The notes under the pieces: generated by a model
Seen by the model: only the letters and a program-made list of their open reading frames with translations
Database searches by the model: none
Told to the model about the DNA's origin: nothing
In this document: one piece after another, positions 2,101 through 26,030 of the stretch
How positions within the stretch are numbered: position 1 is the stretch's first letter
How the letters are laid out: every line of letters begins with the position of its first letter
Translations under genes and position numbers: made by a program
Assembly (NCBI GenBank): GCA_007376265.1
Contig: VMFW01000002.1
Coordinates: 13,970 to 77,969 of the forward strand
Source: Parcubacteria group bacterium Gr01-1014_20
GTDB taxonomy: Bacteria; Patescibacteriota; Minisyncoccia; UBA6257; 2-01-FULL-56-20
Direction of reading: 5' to 3'
DNA: 64,000 bases

Positions 2101-2115
2101 AACCGACGTCACTCG

Positions 2116-6751: not shown

Positions 6752-6810
6752 GGGAGTGTTCGCTAATAATGCTAATTCTAACCAAATAACGCAAATAGGT
6801 CTATAAAATA

Positions 6811-6849: not shown

Positions 6850-6853
6850 GAAG

Positions 6854-9023: not shown

Positions 9024-9070
9024 TAAGTCTATTTATACCAGAAAAAACTCGAATACAAAAATTTCGAGGA

Positions 9071-9196: not shown

Positions 9197-9208
9197 CTCA
9201 AAATACCT

Positions 9209-9634
9209 CTAGCCAGTGAGCGTTTTTATGTCATCTCTAAATCGGTTCGCGCGACTAACTACCGCTTCTCCATAAGTCCAAAGATAGCTCCTCCAACGAC
9301 CGCCAGCGTAATACTTTGCCGCGGCGCACCTTTCTCGGCTCGTCTGATTAGAATACAGGTCAGTACAACCCCTCATGGCATCTTTAAGATACAAACCCGT
9401 CGCCACAAAAGCGTCAGCATGACTCCAGGGGTTAGCCGGGGAATTGCCGGTTATTTTCGAAACTGCATCCTTATAAAGTTTCCAGGTGGAAGGAATAAAC
9501 TGCGCCGGACCCATTGCGCCGCCATAGGCGCCATCCTTGTTAGCGCAGGAAACGAGAACCGCCGAAGAATCCTTGCTAATCCCAAGCTCTTTTAGTATTT
9601 CCTCAAATATCGGAATGTCCCTCTTGGGATGCAT
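9209..9634 (-). CDS. lytic transglycosylase-like domain (C-terminal segment of a frameshifted gene)
   Basis: [13 protein letters not shown] motif typical of MltB/SLT-type lytic transglycosylases; overlaps 9603..10616 by about 30 nt in the -1 frame. Confidence 0.5.
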
Positions 9635-10616
9635 CGCCGTTGTACAAGATCATCGCGGGATCAATCCCGGTAGACTGCCCGGCCAACTTTGCAAACTTAT
9701 AGGCCTCATCAAAACTTAGTTCTCCTCCGCCAAGAAGTTTGAAAATTCGGCTCCTAATTTCTGCGGCTGTTTTCTTGGTTTCCGTAAGCAAACCTTGATA
9801 CTTACTCTCTTGCCCTTTGGTGATATCGAGCAGACCATTCTTCTGGGTTTTAGTCTTCTCGTTTTCTTGCTTCTGGACCTCCTGGTACTCCCGGAGAGTC
9901 GTCTTGTCGGACTTAGCAAGCGATAGCTTATCCTTTTGGTCCTCTAGCTGATCCCTAAGGTCAGTGACTTTGGAAATAGTTAGCTGCAAATTGTCTTGAA
10001 TGAGAATGATGTTGTTTACATCGTTGAAAAAATCGGACAACTTAGGACTCTTCAAAAAAACCTCCATCAGGCTTGTCTGATCGCTAGCCTGAAGGTTCTT
10101 TATCAAAACCGACAAAGACTCCTTATTTTTTTCAATATCGCCTTCAGTCGTTACAATTTGATACTGGGTCTCTACGATTTTTTTATCCAACTGGCTGATA
10201 GTCAAATTAATCGCCTTTATCTCGAGGCCAATCTTAGAAATTTTATTATTCAAATTACTTATCTCCCCCTTTAATGTTTTACCCTGTTTCTGATAGCTAA
10301 CTATCTGGTCTTCATATTGATCAATCTGGCCCTCAAGTTCTTTAAGCTGAACCTCTAAGGCTTCTCTCTCATTTTCATCCAGAGTATTATTCGCCGCCAA
10401 AGTTGCTGTCGTGGGAGCCACTGCTGAACCCAAAATCAAAAAAGCCATGGCGAAAACCGGCACTATCACTTTCAAGGTGTTGAAAATCGGTATACGCTTG
10501 GCTACATAATACGACAGGTTAATCCTTTTTGGTAAAGGTGAGAAGGAATCACCCCCCCCTACCCTACTCGGTGATTTTATGTCGCGAAGAATCTTTGGTT
10601 TTAACAAATTAGACAT
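9603..10616 (-). CDS. coiled-coil protein with the start of a transglycosylase domain (N-terminal segment of a frameshifted gene)
   Basis: Signal/TM segment [15 protein letters not shown], long heptad coiled coil, ends ...[24 protein letters not shown] then a premature stop. Confidence 0.5.
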
Positions 10617-10682
10617 CCAAGCCTTATTATAACAAAAAAAGCCTCCTTAAGAAGGTGGCCAGAAAACGTTAAAACATAAGGA

Positions 10683-11336
10683 CTATTCCTTCTTTTCTTC
10701 AACCGCCTTTTTGGCGTCGCGCTCGGCTTTCTTCTCTTCTCCCTCAACTTTAACCTCTGAAACATCAACCGCAACCGGCGCCTCCACCTCCTCTTTTACT
10801 GGAACAACCGTAGCAATCACCGTTTCTGGTTCAACCAAAATCTTAACCGCCGCAGGGACCTTAAGATCTCTCGCATAGATACTTTTATCCAAACTATCCA
10901 AAACCGACAAAAGAACCTCAATTCTGTGCGGTAAATCACCCGGCAACGCTTCAACCTCGATCTCCGATACCGCCTTGTTTAAGACTCCAAGTTTCTCTCT
11001 AACCGCCGGTGCCTCCCCGATAAATTCAAGCGGCACATTGGCTTTGATTTTCTCAGTCATCGTCACCCGATAAAAATCAATATGGTTCACCTCCCCGGTT
11101 AAGTAATCCCTTTTAACTTCGTGAATTAAAGTGGGCAACTTATCATTCTCTAAAACCAAATTAACAATCGTATTTTCTCCGGCCTCCCTAAAAACCCTCA
11201 AGAATTCCGGCTTAGAAACCGTTAGGTGCTCATTCTTAAATCCGCGCCCGTAAACCTCGGCTGGAACCAAGCCCTGTTTGACAAGTAGCCGGCTGACTTT
11301 CCCTAGTCGATCTCTTTTTGTGACCAATAAATCCAT
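10683..11336 (-). CDS. rplY: ribosomal protein L25 / general stress protein Ctc
   Basis: N-terminal L25 fold (LVKQGLVPAEVYG...LTVSKPEF...ENTIVNL) and acidic Lys/Glu-rich tail. Confidence 0.85.
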   Translation of the reverse strand: MDLLVTKRDRLGKVSRLLVKQGLVPAEVYGRGFKNEHLTVSKPEFLRVFREAGENTIVNLVLENDKLPTLIHEVKRDYLTGEVNHIDFYRVTMTEKIKANVPLEFIGEAPAVREKLGVLNKAVSEIEVEALPGDLPHRIEVLLSVLDSLDKSIYARDLKVPAAVKILVEPETVIATVVPVKEEVEAPVAVDVSEVKVEGEEKKAERDAKKAVEEKKE

Positions 11337-11383
11337 ATGAATACGTGGACACTATGCTAGCAAAAAATTCTAGTTATGGCAAA

Positions 11384-12289
11384 TTAGACGAGCGAAGCGT
11401 CAAGCTTATTGAATAATTTGAGTCTCTTCAAAACCACCCCCTTCACCCCCTCAAAAGCCAGGGGGAATATTTTATAAGGCGCTACTTCTTTGGGATTAGA
11501 ACTAAGTCCAGCCTCAAGACCCTTCCGCCAAGCCAACCTTATTTCGGTGTTAATATGCACAACCACAACGCCTGCCTGAATCGCCATCCTGAAATCCTCG
11601 TCAGTATTTCCAGAACCGCCATGCAAAACTAGCGGCAACTTAACCGCGTCCTTGATTGCTCTAATGCGAGCTATATCGAGGTTTGGGTCGGGCATATTCG
11701 CAAACATTCCATGCAAATTTCCAACCGCCGGCGCAAGCATATCCACTCCCGTTTCATAAACAAACTGCTTCGCTTCCTCCGGAGTTGTTAAATCCTCCGG
11801 CTTAATCGCGGCTCCCTCTGGAAGCTCCTCTCTCACCTCTGAAGCCGAACCAATATAGCCAACCTCTCCTTCCACAAGGATTTCCGGATTAACCGATTTA
11901 ACATATTCAACCACCTCTTTCGTCTTTTTAACATTTTCCTCGAACGTTAGTTTGCTCCCGTCAAATAAAATTTCATCATAACCGGCCGCCACGGCTTCTT
12001 TAACTTTTTCAAAACTTTTTGTGTGGTCGGAGTTTAAAAAAATCGGATAATCAAATTCTTCGCGCAAAACGCGAACTAATGCGGCCGCTTGTTTCCTTCC
12101 AACAAAATCCCCTTCCCCTTCTGAGGTCCCGATCATGACTGGCACACTAATCTCTCTTGCCGCTTCGAAAATAGCTTTAAGCGCCACTAAGTCCGAGATA
12201 TTAAAATGTCCCACCGCCACTCTTTTCGCCTCTGCCTCTTTCAAAACAACCCTTAAGTTTTTTGCCATCTTTTTAAAGTTAAACCTCAA
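11384..12289 (-). CDS. fba: class II fructose-bisphosphate aldolase
   Basis: GHFNISD, NSDHTKS and LHGGSG motifs; the start is more likely MAKNLRV at 12268. Confidence 0.85.
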   Translation of the reverse strand: MRFNFKKMAKNLRVVLKEAEAKRVAVGHFNISDLVALKAIFEAAREISVPVMIGTSEGEGDFVGRKQAAALVRVLREEFDYPIFLNSDHTKSFEKVKEAVAAGYDEILFDGSKLTFEENVKKTKEVVEYVKSVNPEILVEGEVGYIGSASEVREELPEGAAIKPEDLTTPEEAKQFVYETGVDMLAPAVGNLHGMFANMPDPNLDIARIRAIKDAVKLPLVLHGGSGNTDEDFRMAIQAGVVVVHINTEIRLAWRKGLEAGLSSNPKEVAPYKIFPLAFEGVKGVVLKRLKLFNKLDASLV

Positions 12290-13532
12290 AATATCCCTGC
12301 AACAAATATTCCACCGCCCGCTTCTCCATGTCTTCCCGACCGAAATAAACTGAAAAGATCTGGTTCCACATGGCTTCCTGGTGATGATACAAGTATTTTA
12401 CCATTTCTCGCTGTTTCACTAAGGACATGACCGTATCCACCAAATTGAAACTAACCAAAATATTGTGACCCATCTCGTCCCTAAAATAATCCCCCACCCA
12501 GCCCAACTCACGCCAAAACTCCAAGTCCTTCCCAAGCCCATCCAGGGTCAAACCAACCTTAGATAAGCTATCTTCGGCCTTCAGCCAATGAAGTGCCTCG
12601 GGATTAATGTGGGGCACAAACAGCCTCCAGTCGTTTTCATCATCTTTAGCTAAATACCTCTGAACCACTAACCAGAGCGACCGATCACTGTCTGGAAAGT
12701 GCCGCTCCGTTACATCCCCCCGGAGAAGCGAAGTAAAGTTAGCCGTGAAGGTAATCCTCTCTTCCATTATGTGCTTAAAAATCCGCGAATAAAAAGGCAC
12801 CTCATATAAATAATGCATAACTAGCACAAACATCCGAAGCAACTCACCAGAAATGCCGAGTAGGGCCGGAATAATAAAAACCACGCCCAACTCCTTAAGG
12901 TGGCTAATATTGTGCTTCTTCTTTGAAACAAACTTTTCCGACTCCGCTCCCCACTTCTCACCAAGGGCCTTAACCTGGACTTCCCGCTCCTCAAAATCTT
13001 CGGGTGTCAAAGTTTCATACTGTTTGAAGAAAACTCCGTTCAGCCATTCACTCCCTTCAATAAATCTAAGCGCGCTATAAACCTCAAGCAAATCTTCTTT
13101 TTCGAGCATCTTATCCACCGAATCGTAACCTAAAAACTCCATTACCTTCTTGGGTGGTTCCTTCAACAAAAACTCCCTCGCCTTATCAAGTTTCAAAAAA
13201 AATCCTTTGGGGGGATTAATAATTCTTCTAGCCACATCCCCTATTCTCTGGCAATCGCCCACTAATTTAAAATTAGGGCTGCCAAACGCCTGAAATATTT
13301 GCCGATCATCCGACTCGATTTTTGAAATCAAAGCATCATAAATCTCCTTCGCATCCGCGCTCGACGAAACCCCTAAACGCAAAAGCCGATCCTTCATGAG
13401 CTCCTCGTTCTCCTGAACAATTGCCTCCATCATGGAACTCTTGCCGGTTACCGCCGCAAATCTCTTCTCAATATCCAAAATATAATCCTTATCCGTCCTT
13501 AAAATCTTGGCTATTTTTTCGTAAGCGTTCAT
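12279..13532 (-). CDS. hypothetical protein, 417 aa
   Basis: Uninterrupted ORF in an operon with fba and the pfkB kinase; no recognisable motif. Confidence 0.55.
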   Translation of the reverse strand: MNAYEKIAKILRTDKDYILDIEKRFAAVTGKSSMMEAIVQENEELMKDRLLRLGVSSSADAKEIYDALISKIESDDRQIFQAFGSPNFKLVGDCQRIGDVARRIINPPKGFFLKLDKAREFLLKEPPKKVMEFLGYDSVDKMLEKEDLLEVYSALRFIEGSEWLNGVFFKQYETLTPEDFEEREVQVKALGEKWGAESEKFVSKKKHNISHLKELGVVFIIPALLGISGELLRMFVLVMHYLYEVPFYSRIFKHIMEERITFTANFTSLLRGDVTERHFPDSDRSLWLVVQRYLAKDDENDWRLFVPHINPEALHWLKAEDSLSKVGLTLDGLGKDLEFWRELGWVGDYFRDEMGHNILVSFNLVDTVMSLVKQREMVKYLYHHQEAMWNQIFSVYFGREDMEKRAVEYLLQGYFEV

Positions 13533-13538
13533 AAAAAA

Positions 13539-14606
13539 TTAAATCTTGAAAGTTTTAACTGATAAGTTTTTCCACCTCGCTTGAGTTTCAAACTGACGCC
13601 GAGTTAGAATCCCCGATTGTGCCCCGACCTCTTCAACATTCGAAGTCGCATTAGCGCTTCCCAACCGAATCGCATACTCTATATCCTCTTCTTTAAAAAT
13701 TTTATTTCTCCCGTCTCTTGATGCTTGATGCTTGATGCTTGATGCTTGCCGGAGTAATCCGGCTGTAAATCCCGAACCAAAGGAATCTCCCGCGCCAGTT
13801 CGGTCAGCTACTCGTTTTTCTCTGTAAATTCCTGCCTTATAAATCCGTCTGCCATCCGAAACCGCGACTCCTTTCGGGCCATCGGTCATCACCGCCAACC
13901 CCCCCACCATCTCATCAAATTTTTTAAAAATCCCTTTTTCATCCTCATATTTCTTCCCTGTCAAAGCCGCCCCTTCGTCTCGATTCAAAATAATAATATC
14001 TGTGAAGTCAAAAAGAGGTCGGAGCTTTTTAGCGCCCAAATCAATGTAGTGACGTGACGGATTCATGGCCACCATCACACCCCTCTTTTTTAACTTTTTT
14101 AAAATACTCACAATCACCGAAACGCCTATTCGGCCGGGCACAACGTACGCTGCGTCCACATTGAAATCTCTTCTAGGAACCTCTGTGATTCGTAAATCCT
14201 GAGAGGCTCCATGATAGCTTAGAATGGTCCTTTCTCCTTCAGCAGAAAGAAATATCACCGAATAAGCCGTGCCTCTCACCTTGTCAAAAATTACTACCGG
14301 TCCAACTTTTTCTTTCTTTAAAGCTGTCATGATTTCCTCCCCATTGGGGTCGTTTCCAATCTTAATTAAAGCCTCGGTTTTGAACCCCTGTCTCGCAAAA
14401 GTAATCGCCGCATTGGCCGCTCCCCCACCCAGGGCAAAAATCGGCTCTTGAATCTCAATTTTCCCTCCCAATCCCAAAGCAAAGCATTGGGCCTCACCTG
14501 TCGGAAAACCGGCTTTTTTTAAGTGGCCTGGGTCGTGCACCACCTTAAAAAAATCGCCCCGAAGGACCACATCCCTCGTTGCCGTTCCAATCGTAAGAAC
14601 TCTCAT
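13539..14606 (-). CDS. PfkB-family carbohydrate/nucleoside kinase (ribokinase-like)
   Basis: GGGAANAA N-terminal motif and DRTGAGDSFGSGF (the DTxGAGD anion hole); an insertion encoded by a heptanucleotide tandem repeat sits after it. Confidence 0.8.
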   Translation of the reverse strand: MRVLTIGTATRDVVLRGDFFKVVHDPGHLKKAGFPTGEAQCFALGLGGKIEIQEPIFALGGGAANAAITFARQGFKTEALIKIGNDPNGEEIMTALKKEKVGPVVIFDKVRGTAYSVIFLSAEGERTILSYHGASQDLRITEVPRRDFNVDAAYVVPGRIGVSVIVSILKKLKKRGVMVAMNPSRHYIDLGAKKLRPLFDFTDIIILNRDEGAALTGKKYEDEKGIFKKFDEMVGGLAVMTDGPKGVAVSDGRRIYKAGIYREKRVADRTGAGDSFGSGFTAGLLRQASSIKHQASRDGRNKIFKEEDIEYAIRLGSANATSNVEEVGAQSGILTRRQFETQARWKNLSVKTFKI

Positions 14607-14678
14607 TGGCCATAATTATAGCAGTTTTCAAATAAAAACCCGAGCGCTTAAGCTCGGGTCGACGGTTAGTCGATAAAG

Positions 14679-15791
14679 TCATTCCTGGTCAGAATCCTCA
14701 ATGTCTTTCCGGAGTCGTTTAAACTTGACTTCGATTCTCCGGAGTCTCGTTAGTTCCGCTTCGGTTTCAGTATCAACCGTAGGTCTTTCTAAAAACCGAT
14801 CAAGAACCCCGGCTAATCGTTCAATAGCCGGACCCATCAGATCCATAGCGGCCTTTACTTCCGATATAGAGGAACGAACCTCGTCAGAAAACGTATCCGT
14901 ATCTGGAGTTTCGGTTGACAAATCCTGGTGAACCGGGGGATCTCCACTCGCAACGCTCCGAACAATCTTCGCTCCTTCAGTTGAAACACGTCTCGTTTTT
15001 AAGTATCCGTCTGGATCTTTCCTCCATGCGTAGTAAAGAACCTGCAGATACTGTGGCGTGGTTTCTATGTCCTCCACTACCGCCAGAGCGCAGACACGGT
15101 GGGCTTCATCCCCGGCCGTGCCATTACCTATTCGAAAGTGCTTGTAAGCAAAAGCTTTGATCGATCCGCGTTTCTGCTTGACCACAACTTTGGTTTCCGC
15201 CGGTTTTAACACTGGAGCATCACCACCTCTCTCTTCTTCAAGCTCATCGTGAGCCACCAATTCTTCTTCCGAAATCGTTTCTCGATCTGGAACAGTGGAA
15301 TTTCCTTCATGAGCAACAACCACATAATCAGATACCACGCTTTTTGAAACTTGAGGGGGAAAAATCAACGAAAAATCCCTAGTCTCGACGGCTTTGAGTT
15401 TGGCTAGTGCGGCAAGGGCCGCCTCTCGAGATGGCAGGATAGAGGCGACTAACCTTCTGGCCTCACCGGTTTGCATTGCGTGCGACAGAAACCACACCCC
15501 CCCGCTCTTCGCGTAATCCTTCACCTTGAGGTACCACGCCGTAGAAAGAAATTTCAAGAAGATAACTACGACCACACCCTTGGGGATATTTGGTTTTTTT
15601 CTGGCTGAAGGATCGTGAGAATCCCAAAATACCATTTGGGGGTGATTTCGAATATCATTTGGAAAATTACCGTCCTTGGAACCGACTACGAGTATCTTAG
15701 ATCTCGGATCGTCACGCAGTTTCTCGATGACCGCTTTGCTCGGCTGCAACAATTCCACTAGAAAACACCTCCCCTCTTCGGAAAATGACAA
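14679..15791 (-). CDS. hypothetical protein, 370 aa, GC above background
   Basis: Long clean ORF with no known motif. Confidence 0.5.
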   Translation of the reverse strand: MSFSEEGRCFLVELLQPSKAVIEKLRDDPRSKILVVGSKDGNFPNDIRNHPQMVFWDSHDPSARKKPNIPKGVVVVIFLKFLSTAWYLKVKDYAKSGGVWFLSHAMQTGEARRLVASILPSREAALAALAKLKAVETRDFSLIFPPQVSKSVVSDYVVVAHEGNSTVPDRETISEEELVAHDELEEERGGDAPVLKPAETKVVVKQKRGSIKAFAYKHFRIGNGTAGDEAHRVCALAVVEDIETTPQYLQVLYYAWRKDPDGYLKTRRVSTEGAKIVRSVASGDPPVHQDLSTETPDTDTFSDEVRSSISEVKAAMDLMGPAIERLAGVLDRFLERPTVDTETEAELTRLRRIEVKFKRLRKDIEDSDQE

Positions 15792-15838
15792 ATATCTCCC
15801 ATTCTTCTAACACAAAGAAAACCTTACGTCAAACAACT

Positions 15839-16855
15839 TTATTCAGGCAAGTAGGGCTGAAAATCACTGTTTATTTTAAATTTAACCGGTTTAACGTTAG
15901 TTATTTTCTTGTCAGTAACTTTAAGTTCGACTGACATTCCCCCCATTGTCTCCTCCGAAAAACCCTGATCAAAAACGAAATTCCCGAGGCTATAAAATAT
16001 CCAGGAACCTTCATATTCCTCAACTTCCTGTGGCACGTGTGGATGGTGACCAACAACCACGTCGGCTCCAGCGTCAACTAGTGATCGGGCTGTTTTTTTC
16101 TGCCAGTCGCTCGCATTGGTTTTATACTCCTCCCCCCAATGCAAAGAAACTACCACTAAGTCCGCCCGGCTTTTTACCTCCTCTACTCTCTCTCGAATTT
16201 TTTCCAAATCAAAATCACTCACCCCAGAAGAATCTGCCTCAGCCGCTAGACCATTAGGGTAAAGATTGGTGTAGGCCAAAAACGCGACGCGCAAATTCTT
16301 AACATCATAAAAATAAGCTTGATTCGCCTCTTCGTAATTTCGTCCCGCGCCAACCGTTCCAATTCCCACTCCAGCTAAATTAGAAAGGGTGTCTGAAATC
16401 GCTTCTGCGCCCCAATCCCAAATGTGATTATTAGCAAGAGATAATACTCCAAAACCCGCATCTTTGAGCGCAAGAGCTACCTCCGGCTTGAACCGGAACG
16501 AGTAAATACTTCCTTGATTTTTTCCTCGATCGGAGATTGGCCCTTCAAGATTGCCGAAAACCAAATCCGCCTGCCTCAAGTAGTCTTTAACCTTTAAGAA
16601 TGGAAGATGAAAGTCCGAGCTGTTTTTTGAAATCTTCCACTCTACTCCTCGTCCCAGCATAATGTCGCCTACAAAAATTAATGTGGTTTCTATTTTTTCC
16701 GACTTTTTGTTTACGGCAACTGACTGCAAATCTGCTATTCCGCCGGAAAAGCCTTCTGGCTTATCCGAAACAAGTCTAATCTCCTTGATCAGAAAACCCG
16801 AATAAAAAGCCGCAAACCCAACCAAAACAAAAAACCAGTAATAACCTGATTTCAT
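15839..16855 (-). CDS. capA: CapA/PgsA-family metallophosphatase (poly-gamma-glutamate capsule biosynthesis-like)
   Basis: N-terminal TM, then DIMLGRGV, GNLEGP, ANNH and GHHPHV motifs. Confidence 0.8.
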   Translation of the reverse strand: MKSGYYWFFVLVGFAAFYSGFLIKEIRLVSDKPEGFSGGIADLQSVAVNKKSEKIETTLIFVGDIMLGRGVEWKISKNSSDFHLPFLKVKDYLRQADLVFGNLEGPISDRGKNQGSIYSFRFKPEVALALKDAGFGVLSLANNHIWDWGAEAISDTLSNLAGVGIGTVGAGRNYEEANQAYFYDVKNLRVAFLAYTNLYPNGLAAEADSSGVSDFDLEKIRERVEEVKSRADLVVVSLHWGEEYKTNASDWQKKTARSLVDAGADVVVGHHPHVPQEVEEYEGSWIFYSLGNFVFDQGFSEETMGGMSVELKVTDKKITNVKPVKFKINSDFQPYLPE

Positions 16856-16892
16856 CTCTATCGAATTCTAGTTCAAGAAAAGCAAAAACCAA

Positions 16893-16936
16893 AACCCCAT
16901 TCTTTGGTTTCGACCAAAGAATGGGGTTAGGAAAAC
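16893..16936 (-). terminator. rho-independent terminator (AACCCCATTCTTTGG..CCAAAGAATGGGGTT) after the 608-aa surface protein gene
   Basis: 15-bp stem with a U-tract on the minus strand. Confidence 0.7.
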
Positions 16937-16948
16937 CAACTGCAAAAC

Positions 16949-18775
16949 CTATCTAAGGACCTGCAAGAGTTGCTGTAACTGTTGACTAATCTGGCTTAGC
17001 TGGGTCGAAAAAGATTGGATCACTGACGCCGACGGAGTCGCGCCGGTATTAACCCCACCGCCAGAAGAACCCGCTTCACAGGTCGGCGCCGGACCGCCTC
17101 GAAGTGCGTAATCGTCAATCAGGGTCTTGTCTAAAATGTCCACCTTGCCATCGCCATTCACGTCGGCATTCACCCCAGTCGGAATTTGAGTGCTCTGGAG
17201 GGTATAAAGCTGGATCAAAGTGACATCAACAACGTTTACAACCCCATCACCATTTAAGTCTCCGCAAACCCCAGAAACAGACACTGGCGCAATTTTGGTG
17301 ATGAAATCTTCCGCAGCGTAACCTTTATAGCGATTATCCCAATGGATACTCGCCGACCAAGAATCACCACTTAAACTCGATAGGCCGGCCACCGTGCCTT
17401 TTGTTCCAACCGCAATAGTTGTAGAAATATCGCCATCGGGAGTTTTCCTAAGTGGGAACGCTTCTTTCGCCTGCACCCTATCTCCAACCGCTAAACCCAA
17501 GCTGGTCTTAGTTAATAGTTTATTGTCGCAAGTCGGCGCCGGCCCTCCGCGATTCAAGTAGTTAACGAGAGTGGTTACATCCAAAATATCCGGCCTCCCG
17601 TCGCCATTTAAGTCCACCTTAAGCCCGGTCGGGATCGGCACTCCACCAAACACATAGTCGGTTATATCGGTAGTGCTGGAAGGATTATCGAGATCGTTCT
17701 GATCAATCACTCCATTGCCATCTATGTCGCCGCAATCACCCGCCGAAACCTTCGGCAAGACCGTCTCGTCCTTAGAAGTTTTCGTGAGCCAATCTTCCGC
17801 CGACCACCCATCTTCACCTGTATCGTAGTTCACTGCCCACCACCAACGACCCAAGATTGACCAAACCGGCCCACCAGTGATTGTTCCCCTAGCGTTAGGA
17901 AGTTGTATCCCAATATGTACTCCGCTCGGACCAGTTCTGACGTTTAAATTATCGGTGGTTATAACTGAGTCTCCCACTTTGAACTTTACGCTCGGTTGGC
18001 TAAGCACTGCATTCGCGTCAATCACATCCACCGTCAAAAACCTCGAAGCCGTAAACCCGCTGATGTCCGTAACTTTTGCTTCTATCTTATACGTTCCGCC
18101 ATTTTTATAAACGTGAGTAGCCGCGATATCACCACCGCTTAAAAGGTTGTAAGTATTTGAAGTGCCGTCACCCCAGCTTACTAAATAAACCAGAGTCCCC
18201 CCTTCTGGGTCATGGCCTTTCACCCTCCACCAATTGCTGTGCCCGGCACCTACGCTCGTTGGGCTTACAAAAGAGTCCACCGCAAAATATGGTGACTTGC
18301 TAAACTCGGCTGACAATCCCGAACCCGCTGTATCTTTTTTGTCCATCCAATCTTCTACTGACCAACCTGAATTGCCCTTGCTCCACTTAACCTGCCACCA
18401 CCAGTATGCGCCTTGTTGCACAGAGCCACCAATAATCACCCCATCATAACCAGGATTCGCCACCGAAGTTGCCGGACCCCCTGGATTCTCTCGAATATTT
18501 AAATAATCCACCGCTTGTACGCTCTCTCCGACGATAAATTTTTGACCGGGTGTAACCGTCACTGTCGGACCAATCGATACCGCAGGTGGTACATAAACAG
18601 ATCCGGCACCTTCCGCCGCTGAAAGCTGCGCTTGAAGCTGTCGAATCTGCTCCAAAAGCAACTGAATTTGTGCCCGAAGATCTTGGGCCGTAAGCTCACT
18701 CGTTTGAGCTAAACCTCGACCAGGCACAGAAACCAAAAACAAAAACACTAAACCCAAAACAATGAGTTTCTTCAT
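16949..18775 (-). CDS. secreted surface protein: signal peptide, N-terminal heptad helix, SH3b-like x3, PKD, two dockerin-like repeat pairs, C-terminal amphipathic helix
   Basis: Dockerin Ca-loop pairs CGDIDGNGVIDQNDL/DLNGDGRPDILDVTTLVNYLNRGGPAPTCD and CGDLNGDGVVNVVDVTLIQ/DVNGDGKVDILDKTLIDDYALRGGPAPTCE; PKD motif SWGDGTS; SH3b-like GESVQAVDYLNIRENPGG; C-terminus QLSQISQQLQQLLQVLR. Confidence 0.8.
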   Translation of the reverse strand: MKKLIVLGLVFLFLVSVPGRGLAQTSELTAQDLRAQIQLLLEQIRQLQAQLSAAEGAGSVYVPPAVSIGPTVTVTPGQKFIVGESVQAVDYLNIRENPGGPATSVANPGYDGVIIGGSVQQGAYWWWQVKWSKGNSGWSVEDWMDKKDTAGSGLSAEFSKSPYFAVDSFVSPTSVGAGHSNWWRVKGHDPEGGTLVYLVSWGDGTSNTYNLLSGGDIAATHVYKNGGTYKIEAKVTDISGFTASRFLTVDVIDANAVLSQPSVKFKVGDSVITTDNLNVRTGPSGVHIGIQLPNARGTITGGPVWSILGRWWWAVNYDTGEDGWSAEDWLTKTSKDETVLPKVSAGDCGDIDGNGVIDQNDLDNPSSTTDITDYVFGGVPIPTGLKVDLNGDGRPDILDVTTLVNYLNRGGPAPTCDNKLLTKTSLGLAVGDRVQAKEAFPLRKTPDGDISTTIAVGTKGTVAGLSSLSGDSWSASIHWDNRYKGYAAEDFITKIAPVSVSGVCGDLNGDGVVNVVDVTLIQLYTLQSTQIPTGVNADVNGDGKVDILDKTLIDDYALRGGPAPTCEAGSSGGGVNTGATPSASVIQSFSTQLSQISQQLQQLLQVLR

Positions 18776-18869
18776 TTTTAAAATATTTAAAATATTTTTT
18801 AGTAAAACCCGACTACCAATATTGTATCAAAAAACCACCTCCGAAACCAAGGGGCAAAAAACCACCAAA

Positions 18870-21800
18870 CTAAGGTTGAACGATTCTCAAAAGTGATTGG
18901 AGCTGCCTGGCAACCCCCTCTAGCTGGGCGCCAATTGATTCAATGAGCGATGATGAAAGTGGCTGCCCTATTGGTAATTTAGGAGGTAATTTTGGAGACG
19001 TTGGAGATGTCTTCGTCGGGAAACCTGTCGGCACCCTTAAAATCTTCTCATCGAGGGAAACAGCGCCAAGAATCTTCACAGTCGATGCATCGACCCCTGA
19101 AACTTTGGGTCTAAATTTTAAATTTACCACACCGGTAGAACCCGAAGGAACCCTTACTCCACCTTCCTGATCGTAGATACCCACCTTAGCCCCGCCTCCC
19201 TGAACACCCGTTTGAACCTCGAAATCTTGGAACTGGGAGTTTTTTTCCACTCCGACAAATTCAAGTTTGTTCAGGTCAAATGAAAAATTAATTTGTAAAC
19301 CAATAAGGGGCGCATTCGTGTTTACACTCAAGGGAACCGAAATTAGTCCGTCTGCACTTGTAGTTCCTGAACTCAAACTCACCGAAGCCGAAGCGGTACT
19401 CTCTGGATCAGCCGTGCAATCCGGCACCGGCCCGCCCCTAAAAGCATGATCTATGAGATGAACCACATCGATAATATTAATCACACCGTCAGCATTCAAG
19501 TCCCCAATCCACCTTGGACTTGGTTCCGGCCCGCCCCTAAAAGCATGATCTATGAGATGAACCACATCGATAATATTAATCACACCATTATTATCAAGAT
19601 CCCCGCAACGAAAACCGCCGGTCAAATCAAGAGAATAAAGATCAAGTGCATAACCTCCTTGAATATCCGAATTTCTAGCATCCGGCCAAACAACTCGAGT
19701 CCCGTAAATTACTGGCGTCGTCTGGGCCGACCCTTCGTAAGTAACTCGGCTTTCAGTGTTAGTTGAAAGATCGTACATATAAACGTCATCATTTCCTGTA
19801 GTGTCCAAATACCAAACTATCTTACTTCCATAAATATCCGGCCTAAGTTTTTTACTTGTTCCAGAACTAATTCTAGTCTCAAGCCCAGTTGCAATGTCAT
19901 ACATATAAATATTTTCGTTCGTGCCATCGCGCTTATCCTCATAAACCACTTTGTCACCATAAATTGCCGGGTTAGTCTGGTTAGCGGTGCTGGTTGTTAA
20001 CCTCGTCATAGCCACAGTCGAAACATCGTACATATAAATATCGAAGTTGCCATTCCGGTTGTCCTCCCAAACAATTCTATTTCCCCAAATATCCGGCGCG
20101 CGTTGGAAAGCCGTGCTAGTTGTAATCCGAGTTTCAAAAAAGGTAGAAAGTTTTCGCATATAAATATCCGGAACCCCACTGCCAGACCACCTTTCGTCCG
20201 CCCAGACTACATAATCCCCATAAATCGCCGGAGCTTCCTGATCCTTGAGGCTCGTCGAAATCGCCGTTTCAACCCCAGTTGAGAGGTTTTTCATGTAAAT
20301 ATCGCCGCCGTTTGATGCGTCATTTCGGTGATCTTCCCAAACCACCAGATCTTCATAGACAGCAGGCAAAACCGTGCCGTAGATTGGGTGTGAAGCCACC
20401 TCCGTCGTTGTCCCACTTAAAAGGTTATAAAGATAAATCCGCCTCACCCCGTTGCTCCAATCTTCGTACACCACCTTATCACCCCATATTGCTGGCGATT
20501 GTTGGTTGTCATAGCCACTCACAACTTTAGTGATCTGATTCAACAAAGACGCCTTCCTCTGGGTTGTTAGTCCGGCATAAGTCGTTATAACCTTGACCTC
20601 CTTATCGTACTGACCCGGAGAAACAATCGAGGTTGAGTAATCGGTTCCCGAAGCAGCCTGCAAAACCCCGTCCTCGTACCACTGATAGGTGCACCCACTA
20701 CAAGTGCCCGGTAGACTGCCCGGACTCGTCGAAAACGCCCTAAAGTAAACCGCCTGACCAGAAATGACCTGAAGCTCACGGTTCGTGCTAGTGGGGTTGG
20801 GACTAAAACCTGCGTAAAGATCAACCTTGGGCGTCCCCTTAACTTTCAAGGCAACCATGTCTCGCCCCGAATTACCCTGCATATCCGTCACGGTTAGACG
20901 CAGAATATAATAACCGTCATTAACTAAACCGGACGTGTCCCAACCGGAAAAAAGCAACTCAGTGGGTGGCAAAACATTTGACGAGTGAATCGGAATCCAA
21001 TTGTTAGTTTGATAATCCGTTGATTTTATGTAATCCAAACTGTAACTCGCAAAATCCGGCCCTTCAACCCGACCCTGAATGTCCGTAAGTCCTGAAACAA
21101 TTCCGTAGCTATAACTTGAAGTCGGCACCTCGAGCTTTGCAAAAAGCGAAAAATCTTTGGTAAGTGAATCCAAAGCGTCAATTCTTCCCCATCCTCCCGT
21201 AAAGATGGGATGTCCAACATTGTGAGTGCCGTTTTTGATAGCGTAGACTATTCTTTCTGATGACCAGGCAGGGTGAGCTTGTTTCAAAAGTGCCGCCAGC
21301 CCCGCTACGTGAGGCGTCGCCATACTTGTCGCTCCATTCTGAAAGTGCAGGGTATCAAAACACGGCTGTAGGTCCGGATTACTAATCCACGGCTCTACAC
21401 TGTCCCATCTTGCTGAACAAATAAAGGCGCCTGGCGCCACCAGGTCCGGTTTTAAAACTATCCCATCAGCCTGACTTCCAGTCTTGTAGTAAGCCGGACC
21501 GCGAGAGCTAATCGCTAAAATCTGGTCTTGAACTGGGTTAATGTCGTAATCATAAAAGAAAGAGCTGGAAGGATAGTTAATTTTGTAAGCAGCTCCAACT
21601 GCTATAACTTTGACCGCATCGGCCGGACTAGTCACCGCGTTCTCACCGCTATCCACGTCACCGTTTCCATAATTCCCAGCCGAAGCCACTACCACCACCC
21701 CCAAAGCTACTGCGTTATCTGCCGCAACCGACGTAGGAGAGTTGGGCGAGTGCAAGCCCCCTAAACTTAAATTAATCACGTCGAGATGATCTGCAAAATC

Positions 21801-22874
21801 ACCGTCCTGATTCGGGTCAACCGATCGTTCTATGGCCGCAATAACGTTTGGTATATAACCCAAGTTTTGAGAATTTAGAACCTTATAAACGTAGATGGTC
21901 GAGCTCGGCGCTACTCCCCTCAAAACACCATCGGCGGCGGCAATCCCAGCCACATGTGTGCCGTGATAATGATCGTCCATCGGGTCGGCGTCGTTGTTCA
22001 CAAAATCCCACCCTCCCCCAATCTTCGGGCAAGTTCCAGCCAAAATTTGCGGCGTGGTGCAGGATCCAAAATCCGGATGAGTGTAATCAATACCGCTATC
22101 AATCACTCCAATCCGAGCTCCCTGACCATTCAAACACGGCTGCCCCGAAGTCGCGCAACTCGCACCGTTTGCGTCCAATCCCCAAGACAAGTCCGCCTTT
22201 ATAAGCGGCACCGAATCCATAAGCGCGCCATAAAAAACATACTCCGGGTAAACCGCCTCCACCTCCGGCATCTTTTCAATTTTCTTAATATCCTCCGCCG
22301 AAAGAACGTTGACTGAAAAACCATTAAACACGTCCTTAAATTCACGAATTACCTTAACGCGAGAAACCGACTTAGAGAGAGTTGGCAGAAAAGATTTGTG
22401 CTTACTCAAAACGGCCGAACGATAATTCTTAACCTCTTGCTTCAAACTCTGTTGGACACTGAACAAATTAGCTGATTGGCTGACGGCCACCTCCTTTTCT
22501 CGCCTCACCTTATACTCTGAAACAGACGGGTCCTTAAGTTTAATTGTGTATCCGACAATCTCTCGCTCTTTTGGTAAACCGAGTGCTCGAACCGAGGCGC
22601 TTTTCGGCGGAACAGCTGACTCCTGAAGACTGACGAGCATCGATAAATCGCTAACCTTTTTCTTCAACTCCTCAATCTGTAATCTCAGACCATCCAAGTT
22701 CAAGGCAGTAGGAGAAAAAGTGGGACTCACAACCTTAGTCGAACCATCAATGGGTTGCTTCTTAATACTGTAGGGGTCGCTTTTGGAATACGGTACGTTT
22801 AAAGCCGAAACAAACCCCGGCAAAATGAAAATCGCCAAAAGACCAAAGAACAAAAACCTAAAAAATGTTCTCAT
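18870..22874 (-). CDS. giant secreted S8 subtilisin-like protease with ~8 TolB-type beta-propeller repeats, a dockerin-like pair, a cohesin-like domain and a C-terminal amphipathic helix
   Basis: Catalytic triad motifs IGVIDSGIDYTHPDF, HGTHVAGIAAADG and GTSMATPHVAGLAALL; repeats of the PAIWGDKVVYED/IYxxxL type; CGDLDNNGVINIIDVVHLIDHAFRGGP x2; cohesin-like LISVPLSVNTNAPLIGLQINFSFDLNKLEFVGVE; 4-nt ATGA overlap with tktC. Confidence 0.85.
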   Translation of the reverse strand: MRTFFRFLFFGLLAIFILPGFVSALNVPYSKSDPYSIKKQPIDGSTKVVSPTFSPTALNLDGLRLQIEELKKKVSDLSMLVSLQESAVPPKSASVRALGLPKEREIVGYTIKLKDPSVSEYKVRREKEVAVSQSANLFSVQQSLKQEVKNYRSAVLSKHKSFLPTLSKSVSRVKVIREFKDVFNGFSVNVLSAEDIKKIEKMPEVEAVYPEYVFYGALMDSVPLIKADLSWGLDANGASCATSGQPCLNGQGARIGVIDSGIDYTHPDFGSCTTPQILAGTCPKIGGGWDFVNNDADPMDDHYHGTHVAGIAAADGVLRGVAPSSTIYVYKVLNSQNLGYIPNVIAAIERSVDPNQDGDFADHLDVINLSLGGLHSPNSPTSVAADNAVALGVVVVASAGNYGNGDVDSGENAVTSPADAVKVIAVGAAYKINYPSSSFFYDYDINPVQDQILAISSRGPAYYKTGSQADGIVLKPDLVAPGAFICSARWDSVEPWISNPDLQPCFDTLHFQNGATSMATPHVAGLAALLKQAHPAWSSERIVYAIKNGTHNVGHPIFTGGWGRIDALDSLTKDFSLFAKLEVPTSSYSYGIVSGLTDIQGRVEGPDFASYSLDYIKSTDYQTNNWIPIHSSNVLPPTELLFSGWDTSGLVNDGYYILRLTVTDMQGNSGRDMVALKVKGTPKVDLYAGFSPNPTSTNRELQVISGQAVYFRAFSTSPGSLPGTCSGCTYQWYEDGVLQAASGTDYSTSIVSPGQYDKEVKVITTYAGLTTQRKASLLNQITKVVSGYDNQQSPAIWGDKVVYEDWSNGVRRIYLYNLLSGTTTEVASHPIYGTVLPAVYEDLVVWEDHRNDASNGGDIYMKNLSTGVETAISTSLKDQEAPAIYGDYVVWADERWSGSGVPDIYMRKLSTFFETRITTSTAFQRAPDIWGNRIVWEDNRNGNFDIYMYDVSTVAMTRLTTSTANQTNPAIYGDKVVYEDKRDGTNENIYMYDIATGLETRISSGTSKKLRPDIYGSKIVWYLDTTGNDDVYMYDLSTNTESRVTYEGSAQTTPVIYGTRVVWPDARNSDIQGGYALDLYSLDLTGGFRCGDLDNNGVINIIDVVHLIDHAFRGGPEPSPRWIGDLNADGVINIIDVVHLIDHAFRGGPVPDCTADPESTASASVSLSSGTTSADGLISVPLSVNTNAPLIGLQINFSFDLNKLEFVGVEKNSQFQDFEVQTGVQGGGAKVGIYDQEGGVRVPSGSTGVVNLKFRPKVSGVDASTVKILGAVSLDEKILRVPTGFPTKTSPTSPKLPPKLPIGQPLSSSLIESIGAQLEGVARQLQSLLRIVQP

Positions 22875-23872
22875 TTCCTCCTTACAACCCTTTTAACCGC
22901 CGCCTTAATATCCTTCACTCCCATCTCATACTTCTCAATTAATTCTACCGCTTTTCCGGATTCCCCAAAAGTGTCTTGCATCCCTATAAACTCTATCGGC
23001 GTTGGGGCGTGTTTCGCCAAAACTTCGGCCACTGCCCCGCCCAAACCTCCAATAACCTGGTGCTCCTCAACGGTCACCACCGCCCGAGCTTTTTTTGCCA
23101 GTTCAATAATTTTCTTCCCATCCAACGGCTTTATGGTGTGGCAATTCAAAACCACCGAACTAATTTTATCTTTCTCTAAGTCCCTGGCCGCCACTAGGAC
23201 ATTATATAAAAGGGGTCCCGCTCCAATAATCAAAACATCCGGATTTTTCCTACCTGGAGTCTCCCATAAAACTTCAGCCTTTCCCGGAGTAAACGAAGAA
23301 TTCTCCGTCGTAAAAAGATGGGTTTTTTCTCTGCCTACTCGCAGATAAATCGGTCCAAAAACCTTGGCCGCCGCGAGCGTGGCTTTCTTGGCTTCAATCG
23401 CGTCGCACGGCACGAACACCTTCATATTCGCCATCACCCGCATGGTTGTAATATCTTCAATCGCCTGATGCGTCGCACCGTCTGGTCCCACTGAAATCCC
23501 AGAGTGCGCCCCAACAATTTTCACGTTTGAATTATTATAAGCAATCGTAGTTCTAATCTGTTCCCAATTTCTACCTGGACTGAAAGTCGCGTATGAAGCA
23601 ATGAAAGGAATCTTTCCCGAAACCCCCAAACCAGATCCAATCGTCGCCAAATTCTGTTCCGCCACCCCCATCTCAAAAAATCTCTCCGGAAACTTTTTAG
23701 CGAACGCCTCCATCCGAGTCGATTCAGTAAGGTCCGCGCAGAGTGCCACCACATTTTTATCTTTTTCTCCGGCCATGATTAATCCTTCACCAAATCCGTC
23801 ACGGGTGGCCACCATCTTTACTTTTTTATCGTCAAACAAATCCGGATTAAGTTTTGCTAATGGGTTCAACAT
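22871..23872 (-). CDS. tktB: transketolase, C-terminal subunit (pyrimidine-binding and C-terminal domains)
   Basis: Split-transketolase C half: FEMGVAEQNLATIGSGL...GISVGPDGATHQAIEDI. Confidence 0.9.
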   Translation of the reverse strand: MLNPLAKLNPDLFDDKKVKMVATRDGFGEGLIMAGEKDKNVVALCADLTESTRMEAFAKKFPERFFEMGVAEQNLATIGSGLGVSGKIPFIASYATFSPGRNWEQIRTTIAYNNSNVKIVGAHSGISVGPDGATHQAIEDITTMRVMANMKVFVPCDAIEAKKATLAAAKVFGPIYLRVGREKTHLFTTENSSFTPGKAEVLWETPGRKNPDVLIIGAGPLLYNVLVAARDLEKDKISSVVLNCHTIKPLDGKKIIELAKKARAVVTVEEHQVIGGLGGAVAEVLAKHAPTPIEFIGMQDTFGESGKAVELIEKYEMGVKDIKAAVKRVVRRK

Positions 23873-23906
23873 AAAATTGTCTCAAATAAAGTAATTTCAG
23901 AAAAAT

Positions 23907-24779
23907 TTAGCCACCATGAATTTTTCGACCAATTGCTTCTAATTCTTTTAACGCTAACCTGGCCTGTTCCGCGTTAGGCGGTATCCCGTGCCATTTGTAA
24001 TCGTTTTCCATAAAACTCACGCCTTTCCCGGGGATGGTGTGCGCAATAATCATCGTTGGTTTCTCGTGAATCGCTTTGGCTTCCGCCACAGCATCCACAA
24101 TGTGTTCAAAATTATGTCCGTCAATTTCAATCACGTGCCAATTAAAAGCCTCATACTTTGCCCGAAAAGGCTCAAGTGGCATTATCTCTTCCGTGTTGCC
24201 GTCAATCTGAATATTGTTCCGGTCAACCACGGCTGTGAGGTTGCTCAAGCGATACTTGCCGGCAAACATCACCGCCTCCCATGTATTTCCCTCCTGGTGC
24301 TCGCCATCCGAGGTTAAGCAATAAGTTCGATATTTTTTACCATCCAGTCTTCCAGCCAAAGTTATGCCGATTGCTTGAGAAAGCCCCGAACCCAAAGGCC
24401 CGGAGGTTGTTTCCAGTCCCGGTAGGGCTGTTCGGTGAGGATGACCCTGTAGCCTTGAGTTAATTTTTCGCAAGGTTTTTAGCTCTTCAATAGGAAAATA
24501 CCCAGCTCGCGCCATTGTTGCATATAAAACGGGGCAAATGTGGCCGTTCGAAAGCACGAGCCTATCCCTATCTGGCCAGCCTGGTTTCTTGGGGTTTTGA
24601 TTTAAAATATGAAAATAAAAAGCCGTAAAAATATCGGCCATCCCCAAAGGCCCAGCCGAATGCCCTGAACCAGCCTCAAGAAGCATCCGAATAATATCCT
24701 GGCGAATCCGGTTCGCCGTCATCTCCAAAAACTCTATCTTCTTATCGTTTAATCCTTGCATAAAATTAAAACTGCTCAA
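23907..24779 (-). CDS. tktA: transketolase, N-terminal subunit (TPP-binding)
   Basis: GHSAGPLGMADIF, GDGE and HTIPGKGVSFMEN motifs. Confidence 0.9.
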   Translation of the reverse strand: MSSFNFMQGLNDKKIEFLEMTANRIRQDIIRMLLEAGSGHSAGPLGMADIFTAFYFHILNQNPKKPGWPDRDRLVLSNGHICPVLYATMARAGYFPIEELKTLRKINSRLQGHPHRTALPGLETTSGPLGSGLSQAIGITLAGRLDGKKYRTYCLTSDGEHQEGNTWEAVMFAGKYRLSNLTAVVDRNNIQIDGNTEEIMPLEPFRAKYEAFNWHVIEIDGHNFEHIVDAVAEAKAIHEKPTMIIAHTIPGKGVSFMENDYKWHGIPPNAEQARLALKELEAIGRKIHGG

Positions 24780-24805
24780 AATCTAAAAAGAATAAATTAC
24801 GCCGT

Positions 24806-25495
24806 TCAAATCTTCGCCAACTCGGCGTAAGCCGCTGTCGGATTCTTGGCTTGAAAAATATAGTTCGCGGCTATCAAAACATCAGCCCCAGCCTCACGAC
24901 ACAACTTACCAGTTTCCAAATTAATACCACCGTCAACTTCAATTATAGCATCACGTCTAGAATGCCTAATAAATCTTATCTTATCGATTGCTACCGGCAA
25001 AAACTTCTGCCCAGCCAACCCTGGCCTTACCGCTAAAACTTGGAAGAAGGAAAAAAAGTTCAGATACCTTTCTAAAAAGCCAATTGGGGTTTCGGGGTTG
25101 TTCGAAAGCATAAGCTGAATCCCTTCCTTTCGGCACAACTCGACTGTTTCTTCAATAATTTTATCCGGATCAAATTTTTGCTTTCTAAAACGCGGATCAA
25201 TGAGAGCCTCTAAATGAACGAGGATTCTTTTCGCTCCTCCGGCAATCCAATCTTTAATTACCGCCTCTGGCTCCTCAACCATCAGATGAATCTCGGTGTT
25301 AAACTCGAGTTCGGGGTGAGCCTCAAAAAGCGCGGTGAGCTCCTTCGGATTTCCCCAGGTTTTATTGTAGGTAAATTTTGCGTCCGCTACATCAATATGA
25401 ATCCACCCATCTTTCGGTAAAAAACTTTTTGCCTTGAGCAACTTCTCGGAAACACAGGGCAGATCCAAACAATTTATCGCTGGTATCACCTGCAT
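24806..25495 (-). CDS. rpe: ribulose-phosphate 3-epimerase
   Basis: TIM-barrel RPE pattern: PAINCLD, HIDVAD, HLMVEEP, VDGGIN. Confidence 0.8.
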   Translation of the reverse strand: MQVIPAINCLDLPCVSEKLLKAKSFLPKDGWIHIDVADAKFTYNKTWGNPKELTALFEAHPELEFNTEIHLMVEEPEAVIKDWIAGGAKRILVHLEALIDPRFRKQKFDPDKIIEETVELCRKEGIQLMLSNNPETPIGFLERYLNFFSFFQVLAVRPGLAGQKFLPVAIDKIRFIRHSRRDAIIEVDGGINLETGKLCREAGADVLIAANYIFQAKNPTAAYAELAKI

Positions 25496-25500
25496 GATTT

Positions 25501-25962
25501 TTAGCTGTTTTTTATCTCCTCCTCAATTTGGGAAATCTTGTCTAACCTTCTTTGATATCTCTCCTCGCCACCAAATTGAGTTTCCAAAAAAACCTGAACC
25601 ATTTTCTTGGCGTCTTCTTCGTTAGTAAAGGTAGATGAAATCGAAAGAATATTCACGCCGTCATCGTGTTTGGCGTCATAAACTTGATCCGAAGTTATTC
25701 CTAAAACCGACCTGGCTCCGGGAAATTTATTAGCCACAATGTCTACCCCCGCCCCCGAGCCACAAACCAAAACCCCAATCGTGCTATCCCCGCCCAAGGA
25801 AACCTTTTTGGCCACTCCGCTCGCAAAGTCTGGATAATCATCGTCTTTATCGTAATGATCGTTCCCAACATCCACCACCTCAAACCCCTGATCCTTAACA
25901 AAACTTTTCAAAGTTTCTTTTAAAGTAAATCCCCGATGATCCGCTCCAAAATAAATAACCAT
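25501..25962 (-). CDS. rpiB: ribose-5-phosphate isomerase B
   Basis: MVIYFGADHRGF...GVLVCGSGAGVDIVANKFPGARS (RpiB/LacAB family). Confidence 0.85.
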   Translation of the reverse strand: MVIYFGADHRGFTLKETLKSFVKDQGFEVVDVGNDHYDKDDDYPDFASGVAKKVSLGGDSTIGVLVCGSGAGVDIVANKFPGARSVLGITSDQVYDAKHDDGVNILSISSTFTNEEDAKKMVQVFLETQFGGEERYQRRLDKISQIEEEIKNS

Positions 25963-25984
25963 TGATAAAATTATAGCACAACCA

Positions 25985-26012
25985 AAAAACTCCGGTTCGC
26001 GGAGTTTTTTGG
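25985..26012. terminator. bidirectional hairpin AAAAAACTCCG-GTTCG-CGGAGTTTTTT
   Basis: A- and T-runs flank a 7-bp stem; lies between the 825-aa protein gene end and the rpiB start. Confidence 0.6.
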
Positions 26013-26030
26013 TTAAAGTCTATACTAAAC

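Follow-up and report, generated by a model that had tools for sequence, protein, structure and literature searches.

Why do several large secreted proteins of varied domain make-up carry the same short helix at their very ends, and what could that helix do there? The question is raised by a stretch of 64,000 nucleotides from Parcubacteria group bacterium Gr01-1014_20 (contig VMFW01000002.1, positions 13,970 to 77,969), here called the window. In it a preliminary description, made from the sequence alone, had noticed a common amphipathic motif at the C-termini of three proteins of 608, 1334 and 447 residues (p608, p1334 and p447), and a related helix directly after the signal peptides of p608, of the protease p1334 and of a protein of 825 residues (p825). 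We find that the three proteins indeed end in a shared heptad helix rich in Gln and Leu, and that helices of this kind recur at the extreme ends of secreted proteins from related genomes of the Candidate Phyla Radiation (CPR, or Patescibacteria). With moderate confidence we interpret these helices, which span 3.5-4 heptads or about 25 residues, as short coiled-coil association tags on Sec-exported surface proteins of Parcubacteria/CPR bacteria.

Heptad helices at the ends of secreted proteins

All the genes concerned lie on the minus strand. The last part of the p608 gene (16949..17040) encodes ATPSASVIQSFSTQLSQISQQLQQLLQVLR and a stop codon; within it the C-terminal QL-zipper tail, defined by sequence pattern, translation, heptad register and an AlphaFold2 model, comprises residues 583-608 (16952..17029; SVIQSFSTQLSQISQQLQQLLQVLR) and reaches the stop codon. 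The corresponding region of p1334 (18870..18950) encodes SLIESIGAQLEGVARQLQSLLRIVQP and a stop, the tail covering residues 1309-1334 (18873..18950), while that of p447 (34170..34260) encodes NSELATMLVILDSVRNQLVQMLAQLDNIVR and a stop, with a tail of four heptads at residues 420-447 (34173..34256; ELATMLVILDSVRNQLVQMLAQLDNIVR); both were recognized by the pattern and the tail profile, and that of p1334 also by its register. In all three cases translation returns exactly the peptides first noted. A conserved box of small residues, [TS]P[SA]A[SN], stands directly before the tail. No DNA-level repeat is common to the three tails, and the p608 terminator, a 16-bp stem at 16928..16893, lies past the stop codon; a DNA repeat or a translated terminator is therefore out as the source of the tails, and their likeness is at the protein level.

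The related N-terminal helix is found in p608 at residues 31-55 (18611..18685; QDLRAQIQLLLEQIRQLQAQLSAAE), where it begins about 8 residues past the predicted GLA/QT signal-peptidase site, scores 52 bits with the N-helix profile and is helical in the AlphaFold2 model, and in p825 at residues 44-69 (28302..28379; IEAMQKQINSLMELIKSLQAQLDSLR; 56.8 bits). The helices proposed earlier at 18640..18710 and 28290..28400 are thereby borne out, but the one proposed for p1334 is not. Its N-terminal segment LRLQIEELKKKVSDL (22644..22688) is a charged, E/K-rich amphipathic heptad helix that scores less than 2 bits with the N-helix profile and lies upstream of the Inhibitor_I9 propeptide (residues 149-213 by Pfam), for which reason it is probably lost on maturation. 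On these grounds we exclude it from the QL-helix family.

The pattern QL..[IVLM]..QL..[LIVM] occurs in three of the 749 six-frame open reading frames (ORFs) of at least 40 amino acids in the window, namely those of p608, p1334 and p447, and always 2-6 residues before the stop. A profile built from eight tails was then run against a related sample of 18 genome loci and 57 metagenome loci, which makes up 875 kb together with the window and holds, with it, 2,523 non-redundant ORFs that are 60 amino acids or longer. It gave 11 matches (at least 9 bits, E<0.2), each of which lay 0-7 residues before the stop codon; no match was internal, and ten residue-shuffled control databases gave about 0.3 matches of at least 9 bits per replicate. 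The five non-redundant matches outside the training set are at most 6 residues away from the stop (joint p of about 1e-10 under a uniform-position null). A HMMER scan of 1.84 billion representative proteins with the tail profile returned 15 matches at E<=1e-3, seven of which are training sequences. Five are new true matches (P0026, P0027, P0028, P0031 and P0032), CPR-type dockerin, SH3 or PKD proteins in which the match lies 0-1 residue from the C-terminus, and the remaining three are false positives caused by Clp_N or low-complexity repeats. As the tail matches lie strictly at the ends, the motif is a terminal one and not a generic internal coiled coil, the alternative by which the preliminary description would have been refuted.

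Weaker C-terminal helices of the same kind are present in L061/L063, L031, L064, L041 and L060, all loci of the related sample. Our own iterated profile drifted into the preceding SH3-like 'DGWSAE' region; its scores were disregarded, and it served solely to draw attention to additional C-terminal helices. A word-indexed protein search with the tail alignment yielded 74 candidates, none of which scored, the motif being too short for this method; more generally, divergent helices of this length are too short for reliable detection in very large databases.

Matches of the N-helix profile (E<0.02) are of two sorts only, those that follow the signal peptide directly and those at the extreme C-terminus; none is internal. 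The former comprise p825, p608, the 915- and 602-residue proteins of L001, the 921-residue protein of L020, the 644-residue protein of L002, the 296-residue protein of L006, the 732- and 506-residue proteins of L076, and proteins of L058 and L079; the latter are found in L041 (E 1e-5) and L031. The next match (E 0.028) is the start of a spurious-looking ORF of 70 amino acids. A word-indexed search with a profile of signal peptide plus N-helix retrieved 12 short fragments, too few for a census; in the fragments P0015, P0017, P0020 and P0022 the helix precedes PG_binding_1 domains.

Some further helices stand apart from these sets. Just downstream of the P0004 gene in L020, a 67-residue ORF without a signal peptide (8740..8943, plus strand) ends in a near-perfect tail, TPSASVIDSLQAQLLQISQQLNALLLQLGR; it may be what remains of a gene, a gene whose start was called wrongly, or a tail peptide in its own right. 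Weaker similar heptad helices, whose membership is not established, lie right after the signal peptide in giant proteins (1,434-3,499 amino acids) of Saccharibacteria and Sungiibacteriota (L004 1733..6115, L014 4067..11809 and L012 144..10643) and of a metagenome contig (L068 1597..5901), as in SLLAQIAQLIA or IFSQLQSIAQLIQSLF. Within the CPR, helices that follow the signal peptide may be far more widespread. The protein P0012 (818 amino acids), which combines amidase_2 and SH3b domains and is Ala/Gly/Pro-rich with an actinobacteria-like composition, has a different amphipathic C-terminal helix, DAIVEAIIRIIRDILSGSAG, and wall-binding proteins with terminal helices may perhaps not be limited to the CPR.

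None of the terminal signals compared here fits the helices. No Pfam or NCBIfam model matched either of them when whole proteins and isolated termini were scanned, the isolated termini giving only sub-threshold generic coiled-coil noise, and full-text literature searches, judged by title and abstract, turned up no description of the motif, although their incomplete coverage makes this weak evidence of absence. In line with the earlier impression, the same scans detected neither LPXTG nor PEP-CTERM, nor the C-terminal domain (CTD) of the type IX secretion system, nor SLH domains. An LPXTG/sortase signal is rejected because the tails lack the motif and are amphipathic, with Gln every 3-4 residues and 0-1 basic residue at the end. 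PEP-CTERM and other exosortase, archaeosortase or rhombosortase signals are rejected for want of a motif, a transmembrane helix or an Arg cluster in the tails; no sortase-like gene was seen in the window, and NCBIfam matches to rhombosortase- and myxosortase-dependent M36 proteins are confined to PKD regions. The type IX CTD is a beta-sandwich of about 80 residues and the tail a single helix of 25, and the SLH domain (about 55 residues) had no Pfam match in eight scanned proteins or isolated termini. A type I secretion signal is unsuited to proteins that all start with a K/R-hydrophobic-AXA signal peptide and have no RTX repeats. The NCBIfam model CPR_pilus_PamR matches PKD-like domains only, and Pam pili assemble by donor-strand exchange, which is irrelevant to the helices. 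In flagellin and hook axial proteins the D0 region has heptad helices only at the N- and C-termini, which associate on assembly, and p608 and its relatives similarly possess both. However, axial proteins leave by flagellar type III export without a Sec signal and always have both helices, whereas most members of the present set have one helix and all have Sec signal peptides; the helices are not termini of the axial type.

Conservation and movement between ends

The motif also passes the other check set by the preliminary description, since homologues keep it. Of the p608 homologues, the six whose alignment starts at the N-terminus (P0002-P0007) all have the post-signal-peptide helix (LQAQIQALLxQIxQLQAQL), and four of the six have the C-terminal tail, in P0006 as a short variant and in P0003, P0004 and P0007 as such. 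The tail is likewise present at the end of P0008 (from Candidatus Liptonbacteria) and of P0013, two proteins related to p608 over part of its length only. The N-helix is 54-75% identical to that of p608 in P0002-P0005 and P0007, against 32-62% for the body, while in P0006, the most distant homologue, the values are 33% and 38%; the P0004 tail is 79% identical to that of p608, as against 48% for the body. Furthermore, the p825 orthologues from three other genomes (about 52% identity; L001 602, L002 644 and L076 506 amino acids) all keep the N-helix.

The helix is also seen to change ends. The locus L076 (1350..13827) is syntenic with the window (22871..35513), both having surface-protein genes that alternate with gap, rpiB, rpe, a split transketolase and pfkB, in the order gap, surface protein, PG_binding_1 protein, rpiB, rpe, split transketolase, surface protein, PGA_cap, pfkB; at each slot, however, the surface proteins of the two loci are unlike in size, domain number and the end that bears the helix. 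For example, the 732-residue protein of L076 is the syntenic homologue of p447 (E 4e-36) and aligns with it through the last SH3-like domain. It has a helix after its signal peptide and ends straight after this domain, at the point where the linker and tail of p447 begin. Helices of the N-terminal type are moreover found at the C-terminus in proteins of L041 and L031 and in P0016, a 72-residue fragment in which the helix follows what reads as peptidoglycan-binding-type sequence, with no Pfam match. The N- and C-helix profiles align in the same heptad register with hhalign, if weakly (probability 51%, E 1.5e-4), and both helices measure about 25 residues. The bodies that carry them are diverse, with dockerin, cohesin, SH3-like or PG_binding_1 domains or, in L046/L061, an uncharacterized large N-terminal region. 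To judge by these sequences the N- and C-terminal helices are one module, interchangeable between ends, as the preliminary description had supposed in treating them as one kind, and the module appears to have been gained, lost and moved between ends. That the helix acts from either end speaks against every mechanism that depends on C-terminal topology or on the Sec step.

Heptad chemistry and the role of the helices

Registers were assigned automatically to 24 C-tails and 19 N-helices. The heptads are unbroken over 3.5-4 repeats, with L/I/V/M/F at 99-100% of a and 97-100% of d positions. At position a the C-tails have L (67%) and I (23%), and the N-helices I (54%), L (25%) and V (20%); at position d the C-tails have L (52%) and I (34%), and the N-helices L (88%). 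Position g is Q in 57% of C-tail and 59% of N-helix heptads, and position e is Q in 55% of the latter and mixed in the former (L/Q/S/G), where tails of the p608 type have a small residue in heptads one and two. The mean length is 25.6 residues in either class, with 38% hydrophobic residues, 24-28% Q+N, 0.5-1.4% aromatics, some 1.5 K/R in each helix, a net charge near -0.3 to -0.4 and a hydrophobic moment of 0.31-0.37, a composition that reads as coiled-coil chemistry and not as that of an interfacial membrane helix. By GCN4 analogy the two classes could differ in stoichiometry: in the core variants of Harbury et al. (1993), Ile at a with Leu at d reportedly favors dimers, and Leu at a with Ile at d tetramers.

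The closest PDB matches to the tail profile are coiled coils designed de novo, namely the antiparallel tetramers sc-apCC-4 (E 4e-7, over four repeats) and apCC-Tet, together with CC-Type2-(QgLaId)4, with no natural family among them. The design rule of apCC-Tet and sc-apCC-4 (PDB 8a3g, 8a3i, 8a3k) places Gln at g, Leu at a, Ile at d and Ala at e, and the designs are stable when cut to 3 heptads (PMC9533478). Like these designs and the GCN4 core variants, the helices described here have 3-4 unbroken heptads with Leu/Ile at a/d and Gln at g, and the small e residue is common to the apCC designs and the p608-type tails, in which the sequence ...Q-L-S-Q-I-S-Q-Q-L-Q-Q-L-L... follows the rule for two heptads (QLSQISQ, QLxxIS; e=S/G/A). 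The match is partial: over all tails L at a reaches 67%, I at d 34% and Q at g 57%, d is Leu as often as Ile, e is mixed and often Leu or Gln, and there is no bar-magnet charge pattern. Unlike the designs, moreover, these helices occur in nature, outside the cell, as tags of multidomain surface proteins of the CPR.

An AlphaFold2 model of p608, built on an alignment of 8 sequences (mean predicted local distance difference test, pLDDT, 56.8), has helices by DSSP at residues 31-55 and 583-607, each of 25 residues, split from the globular domains by linkers at 51-77 and 568-592 with pLDDT below 50. The model fits free helices on tethers and gives no sign of the two helices packing together.

Based on these observations we propose that the tags, tethered by flexible Gly/Ser/Thr/Pro linkers, occupy the extreme N-terminus of the mature protein or its extreme C-terminus, and that outside the cell the free helices would bundle with like helices of other copies or of other tagged proteins, probably as 2-4-stranded assemblies. 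Such bundling would cluster weak wall-, glycan- or partner-binding modules (SH3-like, PG_binding_1, PKD, dockerin, cohesin), with higher avidity and a non-covalent surface network as the outcome. Oligomerization as such, the number of strands and the partner, be it the same protein, another tagged protein or a scaffold, are what we infer here. The proposed arrangement is reminiscent of the Braun lipoprotein Lpp, likewise a short Q/N/S-rich heptad coiled coil of the envelope with a peptidoglycan-linked role, given that the N-helix often precedes PG_binding_1, and the p825 N-terminus has a faint NCBIfam match to the major outer membrane lipoprotein (E 1.1). However, Lpp is a protein of diderms that stands alone as a lipidated trimer with a covalent bond to peptidoglycan, whereas the tag lacks a lipobox and is borne by large proteins of a monoderm-type CPR cell.

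Several points weigh against the tags being association helices of this kind. The related loci were recruited through the SH3-like 'DGWSAE' motif and form a biased sample. The p608 helices have a pLDDT of only about 55, on a shallow alignment. The likeness to designed peptides is a convergent pattern and not homology, and the polar Gln positions are so strongly conserved that they could instead point to a specific partner that recognizes them. Finally, P0002 and P0005 are close p608 homologues without the tail, and the neighboring giant surface protein p1786 has neither helix, from which it follows that such proteins do not all require the tag.

The conserved Gln bears on a rival explanation that we regard as rather improbable, in which the helices are docking tags that zip onto a membrane- or S-layer-anchored coiled-coil scaffold and thus achieve a cohesin-dockerin-like display from single helices. 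Gln at the polar e/g positions is conserved as strongly as the core, the same tag occurs on many unrelated bodies at either end, and modular docking is already at home in these proteins in the form of dockerin and cohesin domains; yet a candidate scaffold, that is a multi-helix protein or one combining a transmembrane segment with a helix, was not seen in the 64-kb window, 20 kb of extra flank or the related loci, which are a small part of any genome. The dockerin-cohesin pair is comparable in that it too involves small docking modules which flexible linkers hold at the ends of multidomain secreted proteins, but a dockerin is a calcium-binding duplicated loop-helix fold of about 60 residues that binds a beta-sandwich cohesin, and the tag is a single heptad helix of 25. 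We would suggest, only tentatively, that the Q/L helices serve for docking in a surface-display system that is specific to Patescibacteria and independent of sortase, a counterpart of the cellulosome made with single helices. Tags at either end would then connect proteases, proteins that bind the wall and adhesin-like PKD/SH3 proteins to a coiled-coil scaffold or to one another, and the resulting cell-surface network would be the place where these episymbionts meet their hosts.

Head-to-tail polymerization, the reading first suggested, seems unlikely to us. N-helices would pair with the C-tails of neighboring subunits and so give a filament or lattice, much as do the terminal heptad helices of flagellin-type axial proteins. 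This reading draws support from p608 and its relatives P0003, P0004, P0007 and P0032, which have both helices, from the equal length of 25 residues of both p608 helices in the AlphaFold2 model and from the shared register of the N and C profiles. As an obligatory pairing it is not supported, since both helices occur only in this family and most tagged proteins have one: p447, P0008 and the 418-residue protein of L001 are tail-only, p825 and its three orthologues are N-helix-only, and the 846-residue protein of L002 and the L041 protein are also single-helix. Nor is there charge complementarity between N- and C-helices; their core preferences differ (a=I, d=L in the N-helices and a=L, d=L/I in the C-tails), and the AlphaFold2 helices are not of high confidence. 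Polymerization of this type is possible in the p608 family alone.

It is quite doubtful, in our estimation, that the helices are in-plane amphipathic membrane anchors that retain the protein on the outer leaflet of the cytoplasmic membrane in the manner of PBP5/6. Like them, PBP5/6-type anchors are amphipathic helices of about 20-25 residues at the C-terminal end of Sec-exported envelope proteins, and the hydrophobic moment and the 38% of hydrophobic residues given above would suit such a role. PBP5/6-type anchors are rich in aromatic and basic residues; the helices here are by comparison Gln-rich, nearly uncharged and non-aromatic (aromatics near 1%, K/R around 1.5 to a helix, net charge slightly negative), and they are also found at N-termini. 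Their narrow a/d hydrophobic seam with Gln flanks is coiled-coil-like, and the closest PDB matches are soluble bundles.

Least probable is a sorting, secretion or processing signal that a dedicated machine (sortase-, exosortase- or type I secretion-like, or a protease such as p1334) recognizes or removes, as the preliminary description had offered for the C-terminal tails: the strictly terminal location, the [TS]P[SA]A[SN] box as a possible cleavage site and the clustering of tagged genes with a subtilase speak for it, but the tails have no transmembrane segment, basic tail or known motif and match no Pfam/NCBIfam sorting model, Sec signal peptides are already present, the box is equally explained as a Pro/Ser helix N-cap, no processing-enzyme gene other than p1334 adjoins the tagged genes in the window or the syntenic L076, and the N-terminal helix of the p447 homologue is one that a C-terminus-dependent machine would not tolerate.

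Host proteins, their setting and what the tag may mean

The preferred reading, that of association tags, concerns four of the six surface proteins with signal peptides in the window. The p608 gene (16949..18775), whose product matches a hypothetical protein of Parcubacteria group bacterium Gr01-1014_20 at 100% identity, encodes a Sec signal, SH3-like modules, PKD and two dockerins (Pfam Dockerin_1 and PKD_4) between the two terminal helices. Its neighbor p1334 (18870..22874) has the I9 propeptide, an S8 subtilase domain, seven beta-propeller repeats, a dockerin, a cohesin, a Pro-rich linker and the tail (Pfam, NCBIfam). This subtilase carries dockerin and cohesin together along with its seven repeats of TIGR04275 type, and it could self-dock or bind the p608 dockerins. 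By Pfam, p825 (26031..28508) consists of a signal peptide, the N-helix, PG_binding_1 and PKD domains, with no C-terminal tail, and p447 (34170..35513) of a signal peptide, an SH3-like domain, two PKD, another SH3-like domain, the linker and the tail, with no N-helix. Between these two lies p1786 (28680..34040), a giant surface protein with eight PKD domains and SH3 (Pfam), which with the N-helix profile serves as an internal negative. A K/R-hydrophobic-AXA signal peptide starts all five of these proteins by direct reading of the sequence.

Elsewhere in the window, an SLT_2 lytic transglycosylase with an N-terminal transmembrane segment and a long coiled coil is encoded at 9209..10616 (minus) by two overlapping ORFs of 337 and 141 amino acids. 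In the ENA copy of the same contig it is a single gene of 486 amino acids, with an indel near window position 9644, and the split is an assembly or strain frameshift. A 557-residue protein (54708..56381, minus) without a Pfam match has an N-terminal hydrophobic segment resembling a signal or anchor, a coiled coil and a Cys-rich C-terminal half. GC skew is negative over the window (1..64000) and the minus strand holds nearly all genes of the first 41 kb, which is consistent with a single replichore and lagging-strand numbering.

The CPR or Patescibacteria make up a large share of bacterial diversity. A small, recognizable tag would help to catalogue their surface proteome, would allow predicting which proteins assemble together and would suit peptide-level work on organisms that are mostly beyond culture. 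If the tag serves mere homo-oligomerization, the finding is of use for annotation, as a new family of terminal coiled coils, and is not new biology; if the helices form orthogonal natural zipper pairs, they may serve as parts for protein engineering.

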